Shown here: piece by piece, positions 33,873 to 48,293 of the stretch | Numbering within the stretch: the stretch's first letter is position 1 | Layout of the letters: each line of letters begins with the position of its first letter | Virus record (IMG/VR): IMGVR_UViG_2778261540_000003 | DNA from: a virus | Taxonomy: Duplodnaviria; Heunggongvirae; Uroviricota; Caudoviricetes | Length of the DNA: 64,000 nucleotides | Direction: 5' to 3' (one strand) | Notes under the pieces: model-generated | Seen by the model: only the letters and a program-made list of their open reading frames with translations | What the model was told of the DNA's origin: nothing | The model's database searches: none | Made by a program: the position numbers and the translations under genes

Positions 33873-34186
33873 GTGACTTCAGTCAGAATCATCACACGCC
33901 CGGTACGGATGGATCCCTTTTCAAATATTCCATGGACGGCACAGTCTGAGTACCGGGCGCTACCTTCAGTTGTATTGCTAAGCCGCCGCTGGTGGCTTTT
34001 CTTTTTTGTAGGGGGCGCTATGGATAAGAAAATATGCGTTGTTTCGATGAGCGTCGGCAAACCGGCGTCAATGACTGCTGCATGGATCAATAACGAGCTG
34101 ATAATGGCTGAGCGGACCAGCTACCCTGAACGCCGCCGCGATATGGAACTCCAGCTGCTGCGCGAATTGCGAGAAAAAGAGGAAAA
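33873..34186 (+). pseudogene. 5' fragment of mat-like gene interrupted by Tn3-family insertion
   Basis: Reading frame continues in-frame across the transposon when one TSD copy and the element are removed. Confidence 0.6.
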
Positions 34187-34224
34187 GGGGTCTGACGCTC
34201 AGTGGAACGAAAACTCACGTTAAG
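34187..34224. repeat. Tn3 terminal inverted repeat (tnpA end)
   Basis: Exact 38-bp IR. Confidence 0.95.
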
Positions 34225-37200
34225 CAACGTTTTCTGCCTCTGACGCCTCTTTTAATGGTCTCAGATGTCCTTTGGTCACCAGTTCTGCCAGCGTGAAGGA
34301 ATAATGGCCGAGCATATTGATATGTCCGTGGCAAAGCGGGGAGAGGCGTGCGATATCTTCATCATTCAGTGTTTCACCCTGCGCCCGGAGATGATCCAGG
34401 GCTGCCTGCATATAAATAGTGTTCCATAACACGACGGCGTTAGTGACCAGCCCCAGTGTGCCCAGTTGATCTTCCTGACCGTCGGTATATCGTTTTCTTA
34501 TCTCACCTTTTTGACCGTGACAGATGGCTCTGGCAACGGCATGGCGACTTTCTCCCCGATTAAGCTGGGTCAGAATGCGCCGGCGGTAATCTTCATCATC
34601 AATATAATTAAGCAGATACAGCGTTTTGTTGATGCGCCCCACTTCAATGATTGCCTGAGTCAGTCCGGAAGGACGTTCACTTTTCAGCAATGAACGGACC
34701 AGCACTGAAACCTGTACTTTGCCCAGCTTCAGGGAGCCAGCGGTCCGGATCATTTCGTCCCACTGAAGGACTATTTTTCGGGGATCTGATTGCCCTCTGG
34801 CAATATCATTCAGCACGCCATAGTCGGCATCATGGTCCATTCGCCAGAAAACCGAAGCACCGGCATCAGCCAGGCGTGGAGAAAACTGGTATCCCAGCAG
34901 CCAGAAAAGGCCAAAGACAAGTTCGCTGGCACCTGCTGTATCGGTCATAATTTCGGTTGGATTCAGCCCGGTCTCCTGTTCCAGAAGACCTTCCAGCACA
35001 AAGATAGAGTCCCTCAGCGTCCCCGGTATAACGATGCCATGAAAGCCGGAATACTGATCGGACACAAAGTTGTACCAGGTGATCCCTCTGTTATTACCAA
35101 AGTATTTGCGGTTCGGTCCGGCATTGATTGTTCTGACTGGCGTAACAAAGCGCATTCCATCTGCAGATGCCACTTCTCCTCCACCCCATATCTGTGCCAG
35201 TGGCAGCGTTGCCTGAAAATCAACCAGTCTGGCATTAGCGCTGGTGATAGTTTCAGCCCGCAGATAGTTCGCTTTTGTCCAGTTCAGCCGGTGTCGGGTC
35301 AGTGCAGGAACATTTGATCTGATCAGTGGTTCCAGACCGATATTGCAGGCTTCAGCCATCAGCACGGCGCTGATGCTGACGGGCAGATCATCAACTCTGG
35401 CACTGGCTTCACTAGCATGGAAAAACTCATCAGCAAATCCGGTATGGGCGTTAATTTCGAGCAGCAACTCCGTTAAATCCACCGGAGGGAGTAGATCACT
35501 GATCATTTTGCTCAGTCGTTTCAGACTGTCCGGCTCATCAAGACTGGCGAGGGGAGAAATTGTCAACCGGGGCTTCGGGCCAGAAACATCGAGTTCGACA
35601 GCCTCATTTTCGCAAAGACGTGCAGCAACCTGTCTGTAACGACTATCAAGCTGATGACCCAGAGATTTTATTGCTTCCTGCGGGTCTGTCGGGTGCCCCA
35701 AAGAACGATAAACCTTAATCCGGTTTGCCTGCCAGTCAGCACCCTGTAGTAATCTTGCACGAGGATCTCCCCACCGGTTACTGCCGGTAACGTAGACATC
35801 CCTCCGCCTCAGACTATCCTGCAGTTTACTGAGAAAGCAGAGCGTGTATCCCCTGCGGGTGATATGTTTTTCCTTGTTAATCACCAGCCGTTTCCATGAC
35901 CGACTGATAATTTCCGTTGGTGCGTCGTCAAAAAACTGCCGCCGTGAGCTGAACTCCCGGCTGAGGTAGTCACAGGCATTCAGAGTGGTAACCCCGGCAG
36001 GTGCGGATGAAAATTTAACGGTATTCAGCAGATGGGGCAGGAAACGACGAACGCGCCCGTACTGCTCCACCATTTCTTCATGAAAATTATCGTCTGAGGG
36101 CCGGGCAATTTCACGGACAAGCGTGATGATTTCAGCCAGCTTTTGCCTTGGGATGTAGCTGAACACCTCAGCACGAATCGATTCGTCCGGTGTTTCTTCT
36201 TTCAGCAGGTACGAACATGCGCTGGCGAGCGCCAATGCAGATTTATCCAGATCCTTCAGCGAGCGGAGCCGTTTTTTCTGCCCAATCTTTCTGGCGTCAC
36301 GGATGATAACGGCCAGCATGGCGTCCAGAACGTCCAATGCATCATCCAGCGCCAGCGTTTCCCATGCAAGGACAAAGGCAACCAGAACCGCCATCCTTTT
36401 CTGCGGTGACATCCTGGCAATATTGAACACCGAAGTCATACCAGCATAACGTGCGAGATTTTTCAGGCGCACAGCCGGGAGTGTACTCAGGTTTTCAGCA
36501 TGCAGGCCAAAATCGTTCAGAGTTTTCCAGCGTTCAATTGCTTCATTAAACGCCGGACCACTGATGGTCACAGGGCCCTTTTTCAGTGATTCCAGTAAAG
36601 ACAGGCGGCTGCAATCAGTTGGCCCCAGCAGCATCTCCAGCTGTGAACGCTGTTCGGCTGACGGTATCAGTGCCAGTTTGTTCCACAGGCGCAACGTCGC
36701 CTTTTCCCTTACCTCTGAAATCAACCGGGTCAGCGTAGTGGCTCCGGGGAGAATAATACGATGTTGCATAAGCCACCCTGTCGCCAGATCGAAAAGCAGG
36801 CCAGGACGTTCGTTGCTTATCCAGCTCCGGGTATATAAAAGACGGGTAAGGCGAAATGTCCAGGGCCAGGCAAATTCACGATACTGATAGTGCTGACGTA
36901 TCAGCGCTGCATGCTCACGGCGGGTATTTTCCCTCTGACCGTATTCTGCAAGAACGGTGATATCACGAATCCCGAGCTGTCTGGCGGTAAAATGCCGGAC
37001 GCCGGAAGGAATATGATTCATATCGGTGAGGAAGGTGCCCAGAAAACGGACACATCCAATTTGCAGGGCAATGCCCAGACGGTTGTGATCACCTCTGCTT
37101 TTTCCGATAAATTCCTTGTCTGCTTCATCAAGGTGAAAATATCGTGCCAGCTGAAGCTCATCCGGTTCACCGGTGAATCTGCCATAGCTTTCAGTCTGCT

Positions 37201-37225
37201 CAGTGGTCAGAAAGTCAACGGGCAT
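34220..37225 (-). CDS. tnpA: Tn3-family transposase TnpA
   Basis: 1001 aa from MPVDFLTTEQ; matches remembered Tn3 TnpA. Confidence 0.95.
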   Translation of the reverse strand: MPVDFLTTEQTESYGRFTGEPDELQLARYFHLDEADKEFIGKSRGDHNRLGIALQIGCVRFLGTFLTDMNHIPSGVRHFTARQLGIRDITVLAEYGQRENTRREHAALIRQHYQYREFAWPWTFRLTRLLYTRSWISNERPGLLFDLATGWLMQHRIILPGATTLTRLISEVREKATLRLWNKLALIPSAEQRSQLEMLLGPTDCSRLSLLESLKKGPVTISGPAFNEAIERWKTLNDFGLHAENLSTLPAVRLKNLARYAGMTSVFNIARMSPQKRMAVLVAFVLAWETLALDDALDVLDAMLAVIIRDARKIGQKKRLRSLKDLDKSALALASACSYLLKEETPDESIRAEVFSYIPRQKLAEIITLVREIARPSDDNFHEEMVEQYGRVRRFLPHLLNTVKFSSAPAGVTTLNACDYLSREFSSRRQFFDDAPTEIISRSWKRLVINKEKHITRRGYTLCFLSKLQDSLRRRDVYVTGSNRWGDPRARLLQGADWQANRIKVYRSLGHPTDPQEAIKSLGHQLDSRYRQVAARLCENEAVELDVSGPKPRLTISPLASLDEPDSLKRLSKMISDLLPPVDLTELLLEINAHTGFADEFFHASEASARVDDLPVSISAVLMAEACNIGLEPLIRSNVPALTRHRLNWTKANYLRAETITSANARLVDFQATLPLAQIWGGGEVASADGMRFVTPVRTINAGPNRKYFGNNRGITWYNFVSDQYSGFHGIVIPGTLRDSIFVLEGLLEQETGLNPTEIMTDTAGASELVFGLFWLLGYQFSPRLADAGASVFWRMDHDADYGVLNDIARGQSDPRKIVLQWDEMIRTAGSLKLGKVQVSVLVRSLLKSERPSGLTQAIIEVGRINKTLYLLNYIDDEDYRRRILTQLNRGESRHAVARAICHGQKGEIRKRYTDGQEDQLGTLGLVTNAVVLWNTIYMQAALDHLRAQGETLNDEDIARLSPLCHGHINMLGHYSFTLAELVTKGHLRPLKEASEAENVA

Positions 37226-37946
<721 letters not shown>

Positions 37947-38116
37947 TACGCCTATTTTTATAGGTTAATGTCATGATAATAATGGTTTCTTAGACGTCAG
38001 GTGGCACTTTTCGGGGAAATGTGCGCGGAACCCCTATTTGTTTATTTTTCTAAATACATTCAAATATGTATCCGCTCATGAGACAATAACCCTGGTAAAT
38101 GCTTCAATAATATTGA

Positions 38117-38989
<873 letters not shown>

Positions 38990-39098
38990 CTGTCAGACCA
39001 AGTTTACTCATATATACTTTAGATTGATTTAAAACTTCATTTTTAATTTAAAAGGATCTAGGTGAAGATCCTTTTTGATAATCTCATGACCAAAATCC

Positions 39099-39136
39099 CT
39101 TAACGTGAGTTTTCGTTCCACTGAGCGTCAGACCCC
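39099..39136. repeat. Tn3 terminal inverted repeat (bla end)
   Basis: Exact reverse complement of the 38-bp IR. Confidence 0.95.
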
Positions 39137-39141
39137 GAAAA

Positions 39142-39616
39142 GGGTTTTATCGTGCTGGTGGAAGAGGAAAACAGCTTTATTACTGGTCGAGTTGGCCAGC
39201 GTGTAAGGTTGCGCGATCCCTTCATGAACGGCAGGCCGGTACTGATTGAAGCAATGCAGATTTACAAGGAGCTGGAACGCCAGAAAGCGATCAAGTTACC
39301 GCGCAAGGAATCCGGCAAATACATCCTCCACCAAAGCATCTTCGATTCCGAACACGATAAAAAAGGCGATGAATTTTTCAACATCAACTGGAGCGAAATA
39401 ACGACAGAGCATGTTCTGACGTTACTATGTTGCTTTGCGACGGAATACAACAACGTTGCCAGCGCCGAGTACATCAGGGCAATGGCTTCTGAAGTGGATA
39501 GTCGTGATGACTCATCGCTGATAGCGTCATATATAAACATCATCAAGAAAACTCAAATTATGGGATGCGCTAGAGTTCCTCAAGGAATACTCACCGGAAA
39601 GAATAATATTCTATAA
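39142..39616 (+). pseudogene. 3' fragment of mat-like gene interrupted by Tn3-family insertion
   Basis: In frame with 33873-34186 after excising the transposon and one TSD copy. Confidence 0.6.
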
Positions 39617-39713
39617 CCTACGAAGGTTATTTGTTACTTTCTGCGTAAACCCACAACTAACCTTCCTAAGTTAAGGAAGGTATTTATCATGAAGTGTAGA
39701 CATAAGCGTATTA

Positions 39714-40754
39714 TTACATGGGCTTAACCACAACCTTTCCGTATATATCAAGTTTTGATTGTAATACGTTGACGTGAGACAATTCTTTATTCGAACTAAC
39801 TTTATCTAAAATTATATTTTTATCTTTTTCAGTCATGTTATACCCTAAGGTAATTTGCTTGAATGCAGAAAAAGGAATTTTCTTTAAGTTAATTTCATGA
39901 TAGTCATGAAAAACATCAGGATACTCATTCAATAGGCAATCATCAATCGATGGAGAGACAATGCTTCCTATTTTTCTCTCGCAATCAGCCAATGGAAAAA
40001 TAATTCTACTTTCATTTTCAGGAAGCCACTCTTCACCTTTTGTATAAAGAAGCCTATTAATAAAAAGCTCGCGAACTGGATCTCGATTTAAGATCCCATG
40101 CAATGTATTATCTTTATTCTTTATATCTATATTCCTCGATGGCGCAGGATAGCCATTAAATCGCACAGCGCCTTTATAATAGGTTACAGATGCTCTATCT
40201 TCTGGATTATAACTAACATCACACGGCCGATATATTTTAAAAAAATCGTGTGTTTCATCGAAAACTACAGCAAACCCCTTTCCTATCGATGCATAATGAG
40301 TCCACATGTGTAGATTGCAATCACTTTTTGATAGAGAGAATACACCAAGATGACAGCTTACGGCTTCTACTAAATAATCGTTAAGGTACGTTACTATTTC
40401 TTGGAGTTTAGATTCATCATATGAATCCATTGAGGTAAAACCTTCATTGATTAACAAGTGTGGAAAATCCTCTCCGTATCGTTTCCCGCAAGGTTTTAAA
40501 TAATACTCTAACTCTTGTATAGATGGGACATAAGATGGATCTCGTTGCATTTTCTTAAATTCATTTCTAGCCCATGCGTAATCGGCTGGTGAAAATTTAT
40601 TAAAAAATGGAAGAAGTCGCGACTCACTCGACGGATCATTAAGATACTTTGGTTGCGTTGCTCTAAAGAAACCATCCTCCAGACAAGATGTTCTAATGTG
40701 CATGCCCGGCCAAGGTTTTTCCATATAACTCTCGCCTATATATTTAACTAACAC
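39714..40754 (-). CDS. AT-rich gene encoding a DUF2971-like protein, candidate defence/accessory gene
   Basis: 346 aa; low GC relative to flanks; motifs YLNDPSSE and HMWTHYASIGKGFAVVFD resemble the DUF2971 signature as remembered; GTG (or ATG 40724) start. Confidence 0.55.
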   Translation of the reverse strand: MLVKYIGESYMEKPWPGMHIRTSCLEDGFFRATQPKYLNDPSSESRLLPFFNKFSPADYAWARNEFKKMQRDPSYVPSIQELEYYLKPCGKRYGEDFPHLLINEGFTSMDSYDESKLQEIVTYLNDYLVEAVSCHLGVFSLSKSDCNLHMWTHYASIGKGFAVVFDETHDFFKIYRPCDVSYNPEDRASVTYYKGAVRFNGYPAPSRNIDIKNKDNTLHGILNRDPVRELFINRLLYTKGEEWLPENESRIIFPLADCERKIGSIVSPSIDDCLLNEYPDVFHDYHEINLKKIPFSAFKQITLGYNMTEKDKNIILDKVSSNKELSHVNVLQSKLDIYGKVVVKPM

Positions 40755-40806
40755 TGTATATCGATCCTGTTGTTTAAGCCCATATCATATGGGCTTTAAA
40801 TGATTA

Positions 40807-41055
40807 TTAATCAGCGTTCAGAAGCAATGCGTTATCTATGATGATCTGCTCCCATTCTTCGAATGCCCGGTCGCGGACGCCCTGGGGAACACTGTTAGTT
40901 TTGAAATCGACGACCGTCCGCCATTTTCCGTCAGGACGGTACATGCGCAGAGCTTTACTTCCCCCTTCCCTGCGCACCTCAACGTTATGCTTATCAGCAA
41001 ACTCTTGCAATGCTCGTAGCGTCCCATGCTTTACTGTGTAGTATCGCTTCTTCAA
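40807..41055 (-). CDS. Small protein downstream of darB (lxc-like position)
   Basis: 82-aa ORF overlapping the stop of the upstream gene; positional analogy to P1 lxc. Confidence 0.4.
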   Translation of the reverse strand: MKKRYYTVKHGTLRALQEFADKHNVEVRREGGSKALRMYRPDGKWRTVVDFKTNSVPQGVRDRAFEEWEQIIIDNALLLNAD

Positions 41056-41492
41056 GTTTTCTCTCCAGCCTGTGCCAAGGCTTCAACTTCCAAATCGTAA
41101 GACTCAAACTCATAGTCCTGGTCGTCAACCTCTTCAGGCACTGGCAGTAAATGCCAGGCTGAGTATATCTGACCATTATCAAAACGCTCCTGGCTGTAGA
41201 GCGTCGCAGCTATGAGCGTCAGCGCCGGGCGGTCATAACGGTAAATTTTGCGAACGTCACGGTCAACGAGACGACCGAAATTACCATAACCGCGCTCCAG
41301 TAATAATTTTTTAATTTCCGGCCAGTATGGGCCATAGCTGCGGTACAGGCGGGGATTTTTCAGTAATCGCCCGCGTAGCCCTGACAGGAAGAAATCAACG
41401 TATTCGTCTTCTGTCTTTCCTAACAACGCTGTACGGAGTACCGCCTCAAGATATGTTTTATTCGGTTTTATTGTATCAGATAGTGTGGCCAT
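41052..41492 (-). CDS. Protein between darB and lxc-like gene (ulx-like position)
   Basis: 146-aa ORF; positional analogy to P1 ulx. Confidence 0.4.
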   Translation of the reverse strand: MATLSDTIKPNKTYLEAVLRTALLGKTEDEYVDFFLSGLRGRLLKNPRLYRSYGPYWPEIKKLLLERGYGNFGRLVDRDVRKIYRYDRPALTLIAATLYSQERFDNGQIYSAWHLLPVPEEVDDQDYEFESYDLEVEALAQAGEKT

Positions 41493-41525: not shown

Positions 41526-44500
41526 TTATGCGTATTGTTGGATGACGGCCAGAACGTCCGCCACGTTGTGTTTTGTCTCGATAATCCACCAGTTACCCGG
41601 GAAATCGCTGTTCTTCGCCTTCGCTGGCAGCCAGCGAGCGCCGAATTTCGCCTTGATTGCGTCTTTCGCACGGAAAAGAACGCCTTTCATGCCTGAGGCT
41701 TCCTGAAGCCCAAATACCTCGCCAGCGGCGAATTTTGGTGCGTACATCATCTTCAGGTCGGCGGTGGATACGCGATAATTCAGACCAAGAGACTGAGCTA
41801 TGCTGGTGGCATCACCCTGTATTGATGATAACTCTTCTTGTTTCTCGTTTCTGGCGGCAATCTCTTCCTCCGTGATGTTGCCAAGGGCCAGGTTTATCCG
41901 ATCAGCGTCGGCCTGTTTCTCTTCATCGGTGCGCCCGGCAAGAACCGTGTTAATTCTCTGCAATATCTCCACATGATTCTTGCGCATGCTGAGCAATTCC
42001 GGCGTAACCTCGTTAAGATCCACCAGCCCAAGGATGGCAAGGTCGGAAAACATTGATACCAGGTTGTAGGTCATGCGATAGCTGAGTTGACCATAGGCTG
42101 ATGGCAACTGCACCGCATCCATTTTATAGGCATCCATAAATTTAGAGCCGTCGTTTACGACATCCGCAATTGCCGGTGTGATTTTTCCTGTGGTGGCGGC
42201 CTCCCTGATTGCTGTTACCCACGATTGAGTCAGCGCGGAAACTGCATGATTCAGATTGGCTTTGCGTTCTGCTGCAATGCGCGCGCTTGCAGCGTCCATT
42301 GACTGTTTGATCTCGTCTTTATTGCTGTAAATGCCAATGGTGCCAAACTGTGCTGTGGTGATCTCATAATCTGACGCCCGGAACTCATTGGTACCGAAAA
42401 TGGCATTGGTGACTTCAAGTTCAGAATCCCCGTTACGAGTAGCCCCCTGGCTTGTTTTTTCCGGCATTCTGGCGATCGCATCCGCTATTTTCTCCTGAAT
42501 TGCTTCAGGGGATAGCGTATCTCCGTATGACGCGATTACATCGCCATAATTGGAGCCAAACAGTTCAACCAGGAATGTTTCTGCCGAACGGATCTGGCGG
42601 TTATTCCCTTCCGACATCATACCAAGCACCCATTTTGCAATTGACGACTTCAGCGCGCCGTCACGGCGATCCGGGTAAACCGCATGCTTCAGTGGGTCCG
42701 AATAGGTACCAACAAAATCGATGCTATAGCCTGACTCTGTAGTCTGAACGCCGTATGAGTCAGTGATTTTGATCATGCCGCGCTGCTGGAAACGGTAGAA
42801 ATCGTCACAGGAAATGATGTCGTTAATCCCGGCGATGGAGACGCCACCACTGATTTTCTGCATAACAGCATCTTCATCGGGAGTTACATCAACCTGTTTA
42901 TCCAGCGTCTTCACATCCCAGTTACCCGATTTGGTACCTTTGAAGGTAAAGATAATCTCCACGTCTGCGCGCTGGCTGTCGAAGTCCAGCGACTTAATGC
43001 GAACGATATCACCGGCACAATCGTAGTATTGGCCTACACGCCATGAGCGATCGCCGATAACAAGGAACTCACTCGCATGGTTAACCAGGTCAGGATCAAC
43101 ATCCAGAATGCCTTTATTTATTGCATCCTCCACCAGCGGGCGCAGGCGTTTGATATCCGTCGCGGCCTTCTGAGTACGGTTCAATAATTTCTCATAGCGG
43201 GAGATGGCTTGAGAGATATTAGCCTTGCGCTGAATGGCGCTTTTCAACGACGCGCGATACTGTGCTAACAACGTACGGTCTGTGTGATGGACGCTACCCC
43301 AGCGGGCTTTCCAGTCTGCGTTATCAGCTGCTTTGGCCATTACCGCCTGTTTGAATTTAGCTACCTCGGCGGTGGTCTTTTCAAGTTCCGCTTTGCTTCG
43401 CTCTAATTCAGCGGTAAGTACCTCCACATCCTCGCCAGCTGCGTGCTGCGCCTTGATGTAGTTCTGAAGGTCGATAGTAGCCTGTTCTTTCTGGCGAGCG
43501 CGTTGCGCGGCTTTCGCCTTATCCATTTGAACCTGCATCATTGCCAGACGTTCGCCATCATCCTTAGCGGTATACATCTGCATTTCGATCATATCGTTGG
43601 CGTCGGCGTTCTCCATTTCTGACTTATCTGAACGGAGGATATCGGAGATCCAGCCTGCTTTACGCTTCAGCGTCTTCAGTCGGTATTCATCGAAAGAACC
43701 CTTGCCGCAGTAGTAGTGAACGCGAACGCTTGCACGGTTGGAGCCAACTCGGGCACCGCGACCGTTACGCTGTGCGATACTGGCTGGTGTCCATGGCAAC
43801 GTCAGATGATGGATGTCAGTCGTTCCTCGATGCAGGTTGATACCCACCTCTGCCTTTTTGTTGCAGATGATGATCGGAGTCCGGCCCTCCTGGAAGTCGG
43901 CTGCAATCTTTTCCAGACCGCCCAACGACATTTCATTCTGCTGCGCGATATAGGCGTCATACAGAGCCATTTGCTCGTTGTATTTCGCTATCTGTGCATC
44001 TGTTGGTTCATCCGGTAACTCTTTCGGCGGTTTAACCGCTTTCAGTTTCTTACCGGTTTTACCTGCCTCGGCAACCGTCTGAGCATTCAGGATCCCCACC
44101 TTTGAAGGTTCAAGGTTAAGAGCATTGCAGATAATGCGCTTGAGCTTCTGGTGCTGCGTTTTTTCGTCCGTGAAGATGATTTGCTTACCTTCCGGGAAAA
44201 ACTCCTTCAGCGTGGCGATCAGCTTCACGTATTTGGGCGTAACGGGGTGAGTTACGGTCTGTTCGTCAATGCCAAACTTGGCCAGGCGCTTATTCACTTC
44301 CTGCTCGAACGCTTCCGGAACCTGCAACTGAATAAACTCGCCCTTATCTATCAGGGAGTATTGCGATTGCTGCGTGATTGAATCATCACTGTCGTCGTCT
44401 TCGCTGGTGGCTTGTTTAGGCAAACTGTCCGCCAGCTGCTGCACCGCATCGGCGTACTCCGGCAGGAAACGATAGGTGATCCGGCGATAGTACAGGTCCA

Positions 44501-47500
44501 TGTCAGTACATACGCGGTCCATATCCCTGATTATTGAGAAGATCGGACGGGCTTTCTCGTGCTCAATCACGCCGTCTTCATTAACCGAGGTCGTTACGCC
44601 ATTGTTGGCTTTTGCTGCCGCTTCCGCCTGTTGACGCAATTCTTCATACGCCGCCAGTTGTTCTTCAGTAAGTGGTGCATCCTGCTGGTGTTCGTCCAGT
44701 TCCGGGATCTCCACGGTATCCTTAACGTCTTCCGCCGTTTTAAGCGTTGTCCAGCGATGGAATATGCCGCGCAGCGCATCAAGGTTTTCAAAGCCCACCA
44801 GCGCCATTTTTTCTTCAACTTCACCGCTGATTTTCTGTACCGTTTCCAGCCTGGTCTTGCCGAAGAATTTAACGAAGTCATCAGGACCGTAGATCCCCAT
44901 CTTCTGCCAGTATTCCTTCGGCAGAACATGAGAAAGCATGTTGTATGCATCGATCGGGGTGTTAACGACTGGCGTTGCAGTCAGGAGAACCGGTCCACGC
45001 CCACCATTCTTTTTCATCAGGTACGCGTTTTTGATTGCCATATCTCGCGCCGATTGCGCCACCGCGCTGGTGGGCAGATAGGCCAGCTGTGACGCTTCGC
45101 GACCATTTTTATAGCTATTGCGGTAGTTGTGGCCTTCGTCAGCAATCACGCTGTCGAAGCCCATATCCTCAAAGTACGGATACTTCTCTGCTTTTTCGGT
45201 ACCGGTATCTGAATACTCCGACAATACCCGGCGACGCGCCGCCTCTTTGCGATGGGAATCGGAGTCCATTGCGCTGGCCACACGCCCGGCAGCAACGAAG
45301 TCATAAAGCATGTCTTGTGCATGCTCATCTACGGTGTCATCACGTAGCGGAATGCGGGCGTATTGTTCTTTGGTAAACACGACTGCACGGTAGTTTGAGT
45401 GCGGGATCGCGTTCATCCGCGCCGTGATAGTGGCTTCATCTGCCAGCTTAAGGGCATCGCGCATAACGGGAGTGCCATCTGCACCAACGACAGGTTTACC
45501 GTTCTCATCGAGCACCGGCACCTGGCGAATCTGATCGCCATCCATCAGCACATCAAGACCGACGAACAGGTAGTTACTGAATGCCTCTTCACTCAGAAAC
45601 TCTTTTGCTTCGTAATACCAGTTTTCCAGCACTGATTTAGGCACTACATACGCAGTACGGGTGGAACGACCGTTCTCATAGTTGAACGCCTCAAGCGCCA
45701 GCGCGGTCGTGGTTTTACCCAGCCCGGTACCGAAGCCCAGGATGCCGCGCCCATCTTCGGACAGTCGGCGCACCTCGCTATTCTGGTAATCAAATGGCTG
45801 TCGCTTACCGCTTAATCCCTTCAACCCAAGCGGATCGCCAGAGTGTTCATACGGGATATTGCTATTGAAAACATCGTTGTATTTGGCAACCAGCTCATCG
45901 TAGCGATCGTGCGTCTTGATCCACTTATTGAACTGGTCCTCAAGCAGTGCCATCTGCTCGCGGTAGCCGTTCGCCGTCGCGCTATCTTTGCCACCGATAC
46001 GCGCACCATTGAGATACTTTTCCAGCTGTGCCGGGAACCCGGTCGCGTTTTCACCTGATTTACGGTCCCACTCGTAGCGGATCTCGCCTGTTTCTTTATC
46101 CTTGCGCTGGACGACACCGTATCGGTGCCCGACGAACAGACCATCACCACCGTGATAGGTGTCAGAAACCATTTCGTCGCCTTCAAGCTGCACTGACTGC
46201 ACATAGCGCAGATCCGGATAGCCGTTTTCCTGCAAAAATTCCAGAATGACGGAACGGTCGAACCAACGGCTATTGAGCTTAAACCGGATATTCTCTGCTG
46301 GCGTCTTGATGCGCTTCTCTTCGATCGCTGCCAGCTGATTAAGGACGTTGTTCTTTACTGGACCGTCGGGGAGCGTGGCGAGGAATTCCTGTTTTGGAGC
46401 CACTATCTCGTTAATGTCGCCGCTGGTGGCGCGGGCGAACGGAACAATCCCGCCATACGGTGAAACCGCAATACCAGGGGTGCTGGCCAATAAATTAAGC
46501 AACTCTTCATCACTGGCTGGCAGTTCGCCGGTAAACGCAAGGCGGAAATCATCGAGCTGGATTGGATCGCGAGTGAGATCACTGTAGAGATAACGCAGGG
46601 TGTCCTGATAGCTGGTGGAGTCATAACTTGCGCTGGAATCATGCGTAACCAGCTTTCCTGTCAGCTCGTCAGAAATAGTGCCATCCAGCTTAATTGCACC
46701 ACGGAAAGCAAACCAGGCGCGCGCACCGCTCCCCGATAATTTCGCTATCGGACCGCGACCGGGGTTACCAAAACGGTCAATCTCTGCCTGCAAACGGGAT
46801 ACCAGAGAAAGGCGCTGCTGTTCGATTTGTTCAGCACTATGCCCGGCGGCCTTCATGTCCTGATATTCAATTAACATCCGGCCAATCATCGCCCCGCGAT
46901 ACAAGCGTTCACGGTATTTTTCAGGCTGGCTGTTAATCCAGTCCACCAGCTGCACCATATCGTCGCTGATTGATGTGGTGTACTTATCGCGGACATTTGC
47001 CATCTGGGTAAATGTCATGCCGAGACGGCCTTCTGTTGTAGTCAGGTTACGCTGAAGAGCCTCCCAGCTATCCGCGCCATAACTGGCAGCATCGATCTTA
47101 AGTTCCTTCCCGGCATCAGCTTCAATCCAGCGACCACCAGCATATTTTTGCCATACGCCATTAATCAGGCGCATTTCCCCTTCACCAACAACGTCTGCGG
47201 TCGGTGACGGTTCAGCCATATCGAGCAAAGACCAGTCGATACGGCTTTCGAAACGATGAATCAGCTTCGCTTTAAGAGCCTGGTTATCAATCTGACCGTC
47301 GGCACGAACCTCAATACGCCCCTGGAAGCCCTTTTCCTGGGTGCCATGAACAAACCGGCGGCCATCCTTTTCAAACCACTTGCCAGAAATAAACGTTGGC
47401 CAAAGCACATTTGCCGATTCAAGAGTGCTTTCATCCACCAGGGGGATTTTCTCAGCCATCTCTGCCGGATGTTTGCGCATCAGCACCACATCTACGACCG

Positions 47501-48293
47501 TACTGGTCCCGTTTGCGTCAAAAGTACCGGTAGGCAGGCGGTGGGCACCAAGAAATTCAGCTTTCCGTGATAGGCGCAGGCGTAACCGCTTCATGTTTGA
47601 ACCTGAAACAATGGACGGCGGCACAATCACGCACATGAATCCGCCTGGCTTTATTTTGTCCAGCATGCGGAGCATGAAGTAAGAACCCATGTCCGTTTCT
47701 TCTGCGTAAGGCTTATCGATGTTGCGTGTGTTATCACGACCGCCGAACGGAACGTTACCCACAACATGGTCGAATGAATCGTTAGGCGTGCTTACAGCCA
47801 GCTGTTCGAACGGGGAAATCTGTACGCTGTCTTCCGGGTGTAACAACTGGTTTATACGACCGGAAACACTGCTGATCTCAGTCGCGGTCATCACCGTACC
47901 AACCGGTTTTGTCTCATTAAAAACGCCGGTTCCCGCCGATGGTTCCAGAGTGTTACCTACGTCCGCGCCGTAGAGCTTCATGATCTCCCAGACACCTTCA
48001 GCGATCGGCTTTGGTGTGTAATATTCGGAGACGGACCCGCCAATGCCGCCTTCACCGGTGTACCCAGCCAGGATCTGGCGCTGTTCATCTGTCAGTGTCG
48101 CGCCGTCCACCAGCGAATTAAGCAAATCTATCGCCTTCTGATTCGCCTCCCGGCGCAGTCGGTCATAGCTTTTGCCTTCCACCTTTTCCACGCCATATTT
48201 AATCGGCGCTCGGTGAGATGTTATTGCCCTAATGTATTTCAATATTTCGCTGACACTTGAACAGCGAAACACCCCAATAGATAGCTTGTTCAT
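41526..48293 (-). CDS. darB: DarB antirestriction protein (N-terminal methyltransferase, C-terminal helicase)
   Basis: 2255 aa, the size I recall for P1 DarB; DEAH-type helicase motifs in the middle region and an N-terminal methyltransferase-like region. Confidence 0.85.
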   Translation of the reverse strand: MNKLSIGVFRCSSVSEILKYIRAITSHRAPIKYGVEKVEGKSYDRLRREANQKAIDLLNSLVDGATLTDEQRQILAGYTGEGGIGGSVSEYYTPKPIAEGVWEIMKLYGADVGNTLEPSAGTGVFNETKPVGTVMTATEISSVSGRINQLLHPEDSVQISPFEQLAVSTPNDSFDHVVGNVPFGGRDNTRNIDKPYAEETDMGSYFMLRMLDKIKPGGFMCVIVPPSIVSGSNMKRLRLRLSRKAEFLGAHRLPTGTFDANGTSTVVDVVLMRKHPAEMAEKIPLVDESTLESANVLWPTFISGKWFEKDGRRFVHGTQEKGFQGRIEVRADGQIDNQALKAKLIHRFESRIDWSLLDMAEPSPTADVVGEGEMRLINGVWQKYAGGRWIEADAGKELKIDAASYGADSWEALQRNLTTTEGRLGMTFTQMANVRDKYTTSISDDMVQLVDWINSQPEKYRERLYRGAMIGRMLIEYQDMKAAGHSAEQIEQQRLSLVSRLQAEIDRFGNPGRGPIAKLSGSGARAWFAFRGAIKLDGTISDELTGKLVTHDSSASYDSTSYQDTLRYLYSDLTRDPIQLDDFRLAFTGELPASDEELLNLLASTPGIAVSPYGGIVPFARATSGDINEIVAPKQEFLATLPDGPVKNNVLNQLAAIEEKRIKTPAENIRFKLNSRWFDRSVILEFLQENGYPDLRYVQSVQLEGDEMVSDTYHGGDGLFVGHRYGVVQRKDKETGEIRYEWDRKSGENATGFPAQLEKYLNGARIGGKDSATANGYREQMALLEDQFNKWIKTHDRYDELVAKYNDVFNSNIPYEHSGDPLGLKGLSGKRQPFDYQNSEVRRLSEDGRGILGFGTGLGKTTTALALEAFNYENGRSTRTAYVVPKSVLENWYYEAKEFLSEEAFSNYLFVGLDVLMDGDQIRQVPVLDENGKPVVGADGTPVMRDALKLADEATITARMNAIPHSNYRAVVFTKEQYARIPLRDDTVDEHAQDMLYDFVAAGRVASAMDSDSHRKEAARRRVLSEYSDTGTEKAEKYPYFEDMGFDSVIADEGHNYRNSYKNGREASQLAYLPTSAVAQSARDMAIKNAYLMKKNGGRGPVLLTATPVVNTPIDAYNMLSHVLPKEYWQKMGIYGPDDFVKFFGKTRLETVQKISGEVEEKMALVGFENLDALRGIFHRWTTLKTAEDVKDTVEIPELDEHQQDAPLTEEQLAAYEELRQQAEAAAKANNGVTTSVNEDGVIEHEKARPIFSIIRDMDRVCTDMDLYYRRITYRFLPEYADAVQQLADSLPKQATSEDDDSDDSITQQSQYSLIDKGEFIQLQVPEAFEQEVNKRLAKFGIDEQTVTHPVTPKYVKLIATLKEFFPEGKQIIFTDEKTQHQKLKRIICNALNLEPSKVGILNAQTVAEAGKTGKKLKAVKPPKELPDEPTDAQIAKYNEQMALYDAYIAQQNEMSLGGLEKIAADFQEGRTPIIICNKKAEVGINLHRGTTDIHHLTLPWTPASIAQRNGRGARVGSNRASVRVHYYCGKGSFDEYRLKTLKRKAGWISDILRSDKSEMENADANDMIEMQMYTAKDDGERLAMMQVQMDKAKAAQRARQKEQATIDLQNYIKAQHAAGEDVEVLTAELERSKAELEKTTAEVAKFKQAVMAKAADNADWKARWGSVHHTDRTLLAQYRASLKSAIQRKANISQAISRYEKLLNRTQKAATDIKRLRPLVEDAINKGILDVDPDLVNHASEFLVIGDRSWRVGQYYDCAGDIVRIKSLDFDSQRADVEIIFTFKGTKSGNWDVKTLDKQVDVTPDEDAVMQKISGGVSIAGINDIISCDDFYRFQQRGMIKITDSYGVQTTESGYSIDFVGTYSDPLKHAVYPDRRDGALKSSIAKWVLGMMSEGNNRQIRSAETFLVELFGSNYGDVIASYGDTLSPEAIQEKIADAIARMPEKTSQGATRNGDSELEVTNAIFGTNEFRASDYEITTAQFGTIGIYSNKDEIKQSMDAASARIAAERKANLNHAVSALTQSWVTAIREAATTGKITPAIADVVNDGSKFMDAYKMDAVQLPSAYGQLSYRMTYNLVSMFSDLAILGLVDLNEVTPELLSMRKNHVEILQRINTVLAGRTDEEKQADADRINLALGNITEEEIAARNEKQEELSSIQGDATSIAQSLGLNYRVSTADLKMMYAPKFAAGEVFGLQEASGMKGVLFRAKDAIKAKFGARWLPAKAKNSDFPGNWWIIETKHNVADVLAVIQQYA

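Follow-up and report, generated by a model that had tools for sequence, protein, structure and literature searches.

We analysed a stretch of 64,000 nucleotides (IMG/VR virus record IMGVR_UViG_2778261540_000003, Caudoviricetes), referred to at its full length as the window, which derives from a P1-like phage-plasmid of commensal E. coli. Our subject is the one gene that lies between its mat and lxc genes, a minus-strand gene at 39714 to 40754 whose product belongs to the DUF2971 family. The evidence presented below leads us to favour, with modest confidence, the view that this gene encodes a single-protein antiphage effector. The features of the locus, in order of position, are as follows.

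34020 to 34186, plus strand: mat 5' fragment (codons 1 to about 54), located by mapping MH422554 and RCS47 onto the window.
34187 to 39136, no strand assigned: Tn3-family transposon (tnpA, tnpR, blaTEM) of 4950 bp inserted in mat, defined by its open reading frames (ORFs), junctions and inverted repeats.
39137 to 39616, plus strand: mat 3' fragment (codons ~55-213), the left border, located by tblastn with Mat and by blastn against intact relatives.
39488 to 40806, no strand assigned: variable cargo module, comprising the last ~43 mat codons (a divergent allele), the DUF2971 gene and both hairpins; GC fraction 0.355.
39660 to 39681, no strand assigned: hairpin between the convergent mat and DUF2971 genes; dG -14.7/-15.7 kcal/mol, z -2.6 to -2.8.
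39714 to 40754, minus strand: DUF2971-family gene, a single-gene defence candidate with a predicted ADP-ribosyltransferase (ART) fold; 346 aa, 40.2 kDa, pI 6.0.
40772 to 40793, minus strand: hairpin between the lxc stop codon and the start of the DUF2971 gene; dG -12.1/-14.7 kcal/mol, z -3.7 to -3.9.
40803 to 40832, minus strand: candidate promoter with P2mod-like geometry, its -35 inside the lxc 3' end and its -10 (AATAAT, 40808-40803) overlapping the lxc stop.
40807 to 41055, minus strand: lxc (bof), modulator of the C1 repressor and conserved right border, from the annotation of relatives and PHROG 2160.
41052 to 41492, minus strand: ulx (Ulx-like anti-restriction), from PHROG 1629 and the annotation of relatives.
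41526 to 48293, minus strand: darB (antirestriction methyltransferase/helicase), from the ORF and the annotation of relatives.

The sequence-only reading that first drew attention to this locus had described a single AT-rich cargo gene of 346 aa on the darB strand, and this is what we find: one minus-strand ORF with a GC fraction of 0.354, set between flanking regions of about 0.50. At third codon positions its GC (GC3) is 0.282, compared with 0.577 for darB, and lxc-ulx-darB together have a GC of 0.518. The start codon given in the ORF list is GTG, a choice supported by the N-terminus MLVKY, which is common to all homologs. Among six P1-borne alleles the ratio of nonsynonymous to synonymous polymorphism (pN/pS) is 0-0.38 and the differences are mostly synonymous; the gene is therefore maintained, and the data taken together show an intact, AT-rich, horizontally acquired gene under purifying selection. 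At least 85 P1-like plasmids carry it at 98-100% identity, annotated as 'DUF2971 domain-containing protein', and two records filed under phage P1 contain it as well (without annotation in the one examined). In complete E. coli genomes it is found in 62 of 5,426, with 63 of its 64 copies plasmid-borne.

The gene sits in a module with sharp borders. Homology to RCS47 ends at 39487 and is regained at 40807, and in the junction alignment the right border is exactly the lxc stop codon, while on the left the divergence begins inside mat, about 130 nt before the mat stop (39488). What had been called a mat-like gene at 39152-39616 is indeed mat sequence, but it is only the 3' fragment: mat is split at about codon 54 by a Tn3-family blaTEM transposon that had been missed, and it is this truncation that produced the spurious ORF start listed at 39152. 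The 38-bp inverted repeats of the transposon are intact, and a 5-bp target duplication, GAAAA, flanks it (34182-34186 and 39137-39141). Because the insertion interrupts a gene for maturation control, phage function of the element may be impaired, even as beta-lactam resistance is carried alongside the defence slot.

Both hairpins that bracket the gene fold and are more stable than shuffled controls, against which the z-scores were computed, as had been proposed from the letters of the sequence. The hairpin at 39660-39681 was also picked up by a plus-strand terminator scan, on the mat side, and is likely a bidirectional terminator. The hairpin at 40772-40793 is one of two things, a terminator of lxc that lacks a U-tract or a stem-loop in the 5' untranslated region (5'-UTR) of the DUF2971 transcript; the second option arises because of the promoter-like geometry at the lxc junction. 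In P1, the P2mod promoter drives mod and, according to the P1 annotation, has its -35 within the lxc 3' end and its -10 overlapping the lxc stop. The corresponding -10 in the window (AATAAT) is better than that of P2mod in the junction alignment, and by comparison with the P1 annotation we tentatively assign a P2mod-like promoter to the DUF2971 gene. Since the promoter scan did not call this site, read-through from lxc stays an alternative source of transcripts. A sigma-70-like site also occurs antisense within the gene, on the plus strand at 40350-40378 (ATGACA-17-AATAAT, 10 of 12 matches); chance resemblance in AT-rich DNA, or a role in antisense regulation, could account for it.

The place that the module occupies varies among relatives. 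We fetched 80 P1-like viral contigs via Lxc and measured the interval between mat and lxc in each. The interval takes discrete sizes, and the 80 contigs hold at least 11 alternative cargos, which include type III restriction-modification (R-M). The gap sizes and their contents are:

35 or 45 bp: empty.
587 bp: a 135-aa lipoprotein.
878-921 bp: a GNAT acetyltransferase.
1050 or 1060 bp: a PIN_12 protein (PDC-S34).
1196 bp: the DUF2971 gene studied here, in 11 of the 80 contigs.
1272 or 1277 bp: a RelA/SpoT toxSAS (PDC-S33).
1408-1416 bp: a SIR2_2 protein (PDC-S25 / ThsA-like).
1704 bp: a YaaC-like protein and a nucleoside-2-deoxyribosyltransferase-like protein.
About 1750 bp: an EAL protein and an AraC regulator.
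About 3570 bp: a JukA-like protein (E 1e-65), a helix-turn-helix protein and an ANT/ORF6N antirepressor-like protein.
About 5090 bp: type III R-M.

JukB was not identified among the ORFs scanned in the ~3570-bp class. In reference P1 the slot holds res, mod and IS5, and in the viable relative RCS47, which has the 45-bp junction type, it is empty. Between mat and lxc of the window there is neither res nor mod; the gap of 1196 bp with its one ORF compares with about 5090 bp where type III R-M is present and 45 bp where the slot is empty, which confirms the earlier statement that mod and res are lacking at the locus where P1 carries them. A role in morphogenesis is ruled out, as the slot is empty in viable relatives, and a remnant of type III R-M is ruled out by the lack of res or mod homology.

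The sequence-only reading had further placed the gene in a defence hotspot, and the survey of P1-like contexts agrees: the slot holds type III R-M, CapRel-SJ46, SIR2, PIN and JukA, so that by position the DUF2971 gene is allelic with validated defence systems. All of the slot cargos are AT-rich, with GC of 0.33-0.43. Four of them, the YaaC plus deoxyribosyltransferase-like pair, the EAL/AraC cargo, the GNAT protein and the 135-aa lipoprotein, have no recognised defence assignment; these AT-rich cargos could be defence or exclusion genes.

Exchange of cargo extends into mat. The last ~43 codons of mat occur as 15 alleles that are linked almost one-to-one to cargo class. The allele linked to DUF2971 is the most divergent and shares 50-60% of its nucleotides with the others, compared with about 99% identity over the remainder of mat. 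This linkage may simply mark where recombination ends, or the Mat C-terminus and the cargo may be coupled in function, and in the latter case each cargo module might be functionally coupled to P1 maturation control.

Profile searches place the protein in a known family. It matches PF11185 (Pfam DUF2971) with 27.3 bits (E 9.3e-6) at aa 150-251, spanning profile positions 1-89 of 89, where the curated gathering cut-off, applied to the whole-protein score, is 22 bits; the same model is matched by 43 of 43 subfamily members. The assignment to DUF2971 that had been proposed from sequence motifs is thus borne out by the hidden Markov model (HMM) match, and both motifs are real: MWTHYA lies inside the Pfam match, whereas YLNDP, although conserved across the DUF2971 family as LNDPxxE (N39, D40, E44), lies outside the Pfam model. 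The protein also matches PHROG 1762, a group of unknown function, at E 1e-71; none of the NCBIfam families was matched.

Among the PADLOC models, four of the five for the candidate defence family PDC-S31 are matched (E 2.1e-16 to 7.2e-6, with partial model coverage), a membership judged by HMM matches as a stand-alone gene and not by the system-calling thresholds of PADLOC. Within PDC-S31 the protein is peripheral, at E 2e-16 compared with 1e-45 for the best relatives tested, and 32 of 32 diverse DUF2971 relatives match, indicating that PDC-S31 covers the DUF2971 family broadly. PDC candidates form a published candidate set, drawn from genes that lie within BREX, DISARM and type I R-M loci, and this derivation is independent evidence linking DUF2971 to defence. 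In an exhaustive profile search, DUF2971 proteins made up 39 clusters (at 50% identity) at E<=1e-30, 1,456 at E<=1e-10 and 8,791 at E<=1e-3.

The closest relatives of the protein form a subfamily of ~350 aa with 36-53% full-length identity, found in Klebsiella, Serratia, Salmonella, Enterobacter, Citrobacter, Vibrio, Shewanella and others. Typical DUF2971 proteins have 260-320 aa and share only 23-33% identity with this subfamily, which in sequence makes up only a minor branch of a huge family. The gene studied here is accordingly a member of a distinct ~350-aa gammaproteobacterial subfamily of a known defence family and not an undescribed system. Where the sequence-only reading had spoken of a family with no settled function and of an undescribed system, this does not hold at the family level: PDC-S31 is published, a member called Aristaios is validated, and DUF2971 has been assigned to the ART superfamily by two published analyses (PMC12522546; PMC11381338).

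Relatives outside P1-like elements are likewise cargo of mobile elements and in every case stand alone. The Salmonella homolog occupies a moron slot in a P2-like prophage, where tail genes V (baseplate spike) and S (tail completion) flank it and it runs on the opposite strand, an arrangement that is common (121 collection blocks). The Serratia homolog lies at the end of a P2-like prophage, adjoining smpB, that of Klebsiella in a chromosomal islet beside an AAA_15/AAA_21 ATPase, that of Vibrio on a conjugative plasmid, and that of Aeromonas directly after the gmtY/Z/X trio of a GMT island. No conserved partner gene was found at the locus or in any homolog context examined. The description as a single-gene system therefore stands, both here and in homolog contexts, even as 'undescribed' falls away for the family.

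On the Vibrio plasmid and in the Aeromonas GMT island the homolog is followed about 40 bp on by a PIN_12 protein (335 aa), and PIN_12 and DUF2971 are alternative single cargos in the P1-like slot. The two may be adjacent single-gene systems or a cooperating pair. Identity of the pair with a validated GAPS system was rejected, as GAPS1, 2, 4 and 6 are described with other or no domains in the GMT-island paper. A 252-aa DUF2971 protein with about 26% identity is encoded on NZ_CP022128.1, a Klebsiella plasmid, and on about 189 similar plasmids (~110 kb, non-mobilizable) in Klebsiella, Enterobacter and E. coli, where its neighbours are tail-fibre genes on one side and replication genes (DnaB-like helicase, primase) on the other; these plasmids look like a second phage-plasmid lineage that carries the family. 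A 2026 preprint on a nucleoid-associated-protein sensor proved unrelated to the DUF2971 locus.

The AlphaFold2 (AF2) model of the protein, built from a 43-sequence alignment, has a mean pLDDT of 91.9 and a pTM of 0.86, with aa ~201-230 as its only weak region. Its best structural matches are DarT structures (7yk3, 7omv, 7omu and 8baq), and the structure comparison values are:

M. tuberculosis DarT: 7.4.
Yeast Tpt1: 7.2.
Thermus DarT: 7.0.
Thermosipho DarTG: 6.2.
SopF: 5.9.
E. coli DarT1: 5.6.
CteC: 5.2.
TreX: 5.2.

By this comparison the predicted structure most resembles nucleic-acid-modifying ADP-ribosyltransferases (DarT, Tpt1). For DUF2971 in general, profile and structure similarity to DarT, AbiGi and Tox-ART-HYD1 has been reported, together with large helical inserts between strands 1-2 and 4-5 (PMC12522546), and the inserts in our model (aa 56-135 and about 200-240) fall at the published places. 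The model also has a C-terminal alpha/beta domain (aa ~270-346). Onto this scaffold we place a putative ART active site, whose codons lie as follows:

40662 to 40664, minus strand: R31, proposed ART motif I, ending the predicted strand 29-31 within G-x-F-R-x-T-Q-P.
40329 to 40337, minus strand: S140-L-S142, proposed ART motif II ([S/C]-x-[S/T]), on the predicted strand 136-142.
40293 to 40307, minus strand: M150-W151-T-H-Y154, the MWxxY helix after motif II, with Y154 invariant family-wide.
40005 to 40019, minus strand: E246-N-E248-S-R250, proposed ART motif III (E-x-E), opening the predicted strand 248-254.

Within the subfamily, R31, S140, Y154, E246 and E248 are invariant in the alignment. 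Among relatives at 23-33% identity, Y154, E248 and R250 are still invariant, R31 and E246 are conserved in at least 90%, and position 140 is S or C. The conserved Tyr of DUF2971 equivalent to Y154 has been noted before (PMC12522546). In ARTs, whose core is a split beta-sheet, the catalytic Glu (motif III, often E/Q-x-E) opens core strand beta5, motif I is an R or H on beta1, and motif II is S-T-S or Y. The Glu of E246-x-E248 is predicted to lie at the start of a strand, as the ART layout expects, and motifs I and II occur in the expected order, their assignment being made by order and secondary structure only.

Taken together, these observations suggest that the DUF2971 gene encodes a self-contained, abortive-infection-type antiphage effector carried as exchangeable cargo of the mat-lxc defence hotspot, a view that we consider somewhat probable. 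In this proposal the protein would be produced at a low level in the lysogen, from the P2mod-like promoter at the lxc junction or on transcripts that read through from lxc. It would be kept inactive, perhaps by its large helical inserts or its C-terminal alpha/beta domain, auto-inhibition being proposed because no antitoxin gene exists. A component of another phage, or a state induced by that phage, would then free the ART activity, as in CapRel-SJ46, and the freed enzyme would use NAD+ to ADP-ribosylate an essential target. By analogy, a nucleic acid is somewhat more likely than a protein as the target, because of the resemblance to DarT and Tpt1 and of the transcription block reported for Aristaios. 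Phage gene expression would stop, probably along with host growth, and clonal hosts of the P1-like element would be protected.

A more specific version, which we regard as rather unlikely though worth stating, is that the ~350-aa subfamily as a whole represents a stand-alone sensor-effector ART with no need of an antitoxin, which on sensing a phage component would ADP-ribosylate nucleic acid (phage or host DNA or RNA) through an R/[S/C]x[S/T]/ExE site in a DarT/Tpt1-like scaffold. If true, this combination in a stand-alone ART would be one not described for any characterised defence enzyme.

Several results weigh against the antiphage ART interpretation. With regard to the locus, some slot cargos (GNAT, EAL plus AraC, lipoprotein) are not known defence genes, and slot position alone is therefore no proof of defence; in addition, a consensus scan found no consensus sigma-70 promoter upstream of the DUF2971 gene. 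With regard to the protein, DUF2971 was the only Pfam family found among the 43 subfamily members, with no ART family matched even at E 10, and neither the single protein nor the 43-sequence profile matched any PDB chain, again even at E 10. One published analysis reads the active site of the family as 'modified H-Y-E', not R-S-E, and so differs from ours for motifs I and II (PMC12522546). The placing of R31, S140, Y154 and E248 around a putative NAD+ pocket draws only on the order of the motifs and their positions on strands, and a pI of 6.0 (acidic to neutral) is unfavourable for nucleic-acid binding. Finally, the searchable literature holds no published phenotype for the ~350-aa subfamily.

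The alternative that survives best accepts a role in defence or exclusion and denies a working ART: the fold would be remote or decayed, and the protein would, for example, bind a phage factor so as to block it, deplete NAD+ as an NADase or use other hydrolytic chemistry. The lack of HMM matches to ART families fits this alternative, as does a Foldseek search that returned nothing significant against PDB or the viral BFVD models. However, the invariant E-x-E that opens a strand is the canonical ART layout, a strand nearer the N-terminus closes with an invariant R, the [S/C]-x-[S/T] strand comes between the two, and the two published analyses cited above reached the same fold independently, so we judge this alternative unlikely.

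A second possibility is that the enzyme is an ART that serves the phage, acting in host takeover or counter-defence during P1's own infection. The gene adjoins darB-ulx-lxc, which includes the darB-ulx anti-restriction block, and is co-oriented with it, PHROG 1762 shows that the family recurs in phages, and phage ARTs that modify host machinery are established, with Alt, ModA and ModB of T4 modifying host proteins. What makes such a role quite unlikely is where the gene and its relatives are found: close homologs lie outside phages (in the chromosomal islet, on the conjugative plasmid and in the GMT island), the family is embedded in BREX, DISARM and R-M loci, and in the P2-like prophage the gene is an opposite-strand moron among tail genes. 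In P1-like elements, moreover, RCS47 is viable with nothing in the slot, and genuine defence systems are found there as alleles of the gene.

That the gene is a selfish toxin, stabilising its element against plasmid loss or competing with rival mobile elements (incoming plasmids or related P1-like elements), seems to us distinctly improbable. No antitoxin or immunity gene exists in the 1.3-kb module, nor is there room for one, the chromosomal and prophage homologs stand alone, and the validated family member Aristaios acts against phages. These points outweigh in our judgement the almost exclusively plasmid-borne distribution in complete E. coli genomes, the presence in the same slot of R-M systems, which have addiction properties, and the reduction of transduction by Aristaios, all of which a selfish toxin would explain. 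A secreted or injected effector toxin for use on other cells, a role suggested for certain DUF2971 proteins from Legionella and further pathogens, is highly implausible: about 18% of DUF2971 proteins are predicted effectors (PMC12522546), but 43 of 43 subfamily members have no Pfam domain besides DUF2971, no secretion or immunity genes lie nearby, here or in homolog contexts, and the carrier is a phage-plasmid of commensal E. coli.

The DUF2971 family is very large, and Aristaios is its one validated defence member. A member native to E. coli and borne by a phage-plasmid would make both the chemistry of the family (ART activity on DNA, RNA or protein) and its activation tractable with coliphages and standard genetics. 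The mat-lxc slot is in turn a resource for discovery, with sharp conserved borders, CapRel-SJ46 and EcoP1I among its occupants, and several uncharacterised cargos (YaaC plus deoxyribosyltransferase-like protein, PIN_12, the SIR2 single gene, GNAT and EAL/AraC). Because the element also carries transposon-borne blaTEM, its defence cargo and antibiotic resistance travel together.

Among known systems, two are found at the same position. EcoP1I, encoded by res and mod of P1, shares its slot and strand, with promoters at the lxc junction, but is a two-gene, 5-kb, DNA-cleaving system that relies on methylation as a self mark and has no homology to the DUF2971 gene. CapRel-SJ46 is the RelA/SpoT cargo that phage SJ46 carries in precisely this mat-lxc slot; it is a fused toxin-antitoxin, a tRNA-pyrophosphorylating toxSAS validated as an abortive-infection (Abi)-type defence, which unites sensor and toxin in a single polypeptide. 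Its RelA/SpoT fold and chemistry are unrelated to those of an ART, so the analogy is positional and functional only; in those terms it may serve as a model for a lone toxin that stays silent until a phage protein binds.

In predicted structure the likeness is to DarT, an antiphage ADP-ribosyltransferase of thymidine in single-stranded DNA that provides the best matches of our model. Unlike DarT, the protein studied here has large helical inserts, an extra C-terminal domain and the R/[SC]x[ST]/ExE residues. Membership in DarTG is ruled out: no DarT Pfam match occurs among the 43 members (E up to 10), no PADLOC DarT model is matched, and neither DarG nor another macrodomain is present in the one-gene 1.3-kb module or in any homolog context examined. 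With PDC-S31 the protein shares the status of a single-gene candidate, supported by the HMM matches described above; PDC systems are themselves candidates by virtue of locus embedding.

The functional precedent is Aristaios, a 316-aa DUF2971 protein from the Lactococcus plasmid pUCCL641_199 that is a validated single-gene antiphage system with an Abi-like phenotype (Grafakou et al., NAR 2024, PMC11381338). It acts after DNA injection, blocks phage transcription and lowered the frequency of transduction by as much as one log; escape mutants proved unobtainable in Lactococcus (PMC11381338). A tblastn search of plasmids with our protein gave no Lactococcus among the ten commonest of 17 genera. 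The two proteins differ in length (346 aa compared with 316 aa), and the Abi-like phenotype and transcription block are measured for Aristaios only; in common they have a single-gene organisation, the DUF2971 domain and a predicted ART-like fold.

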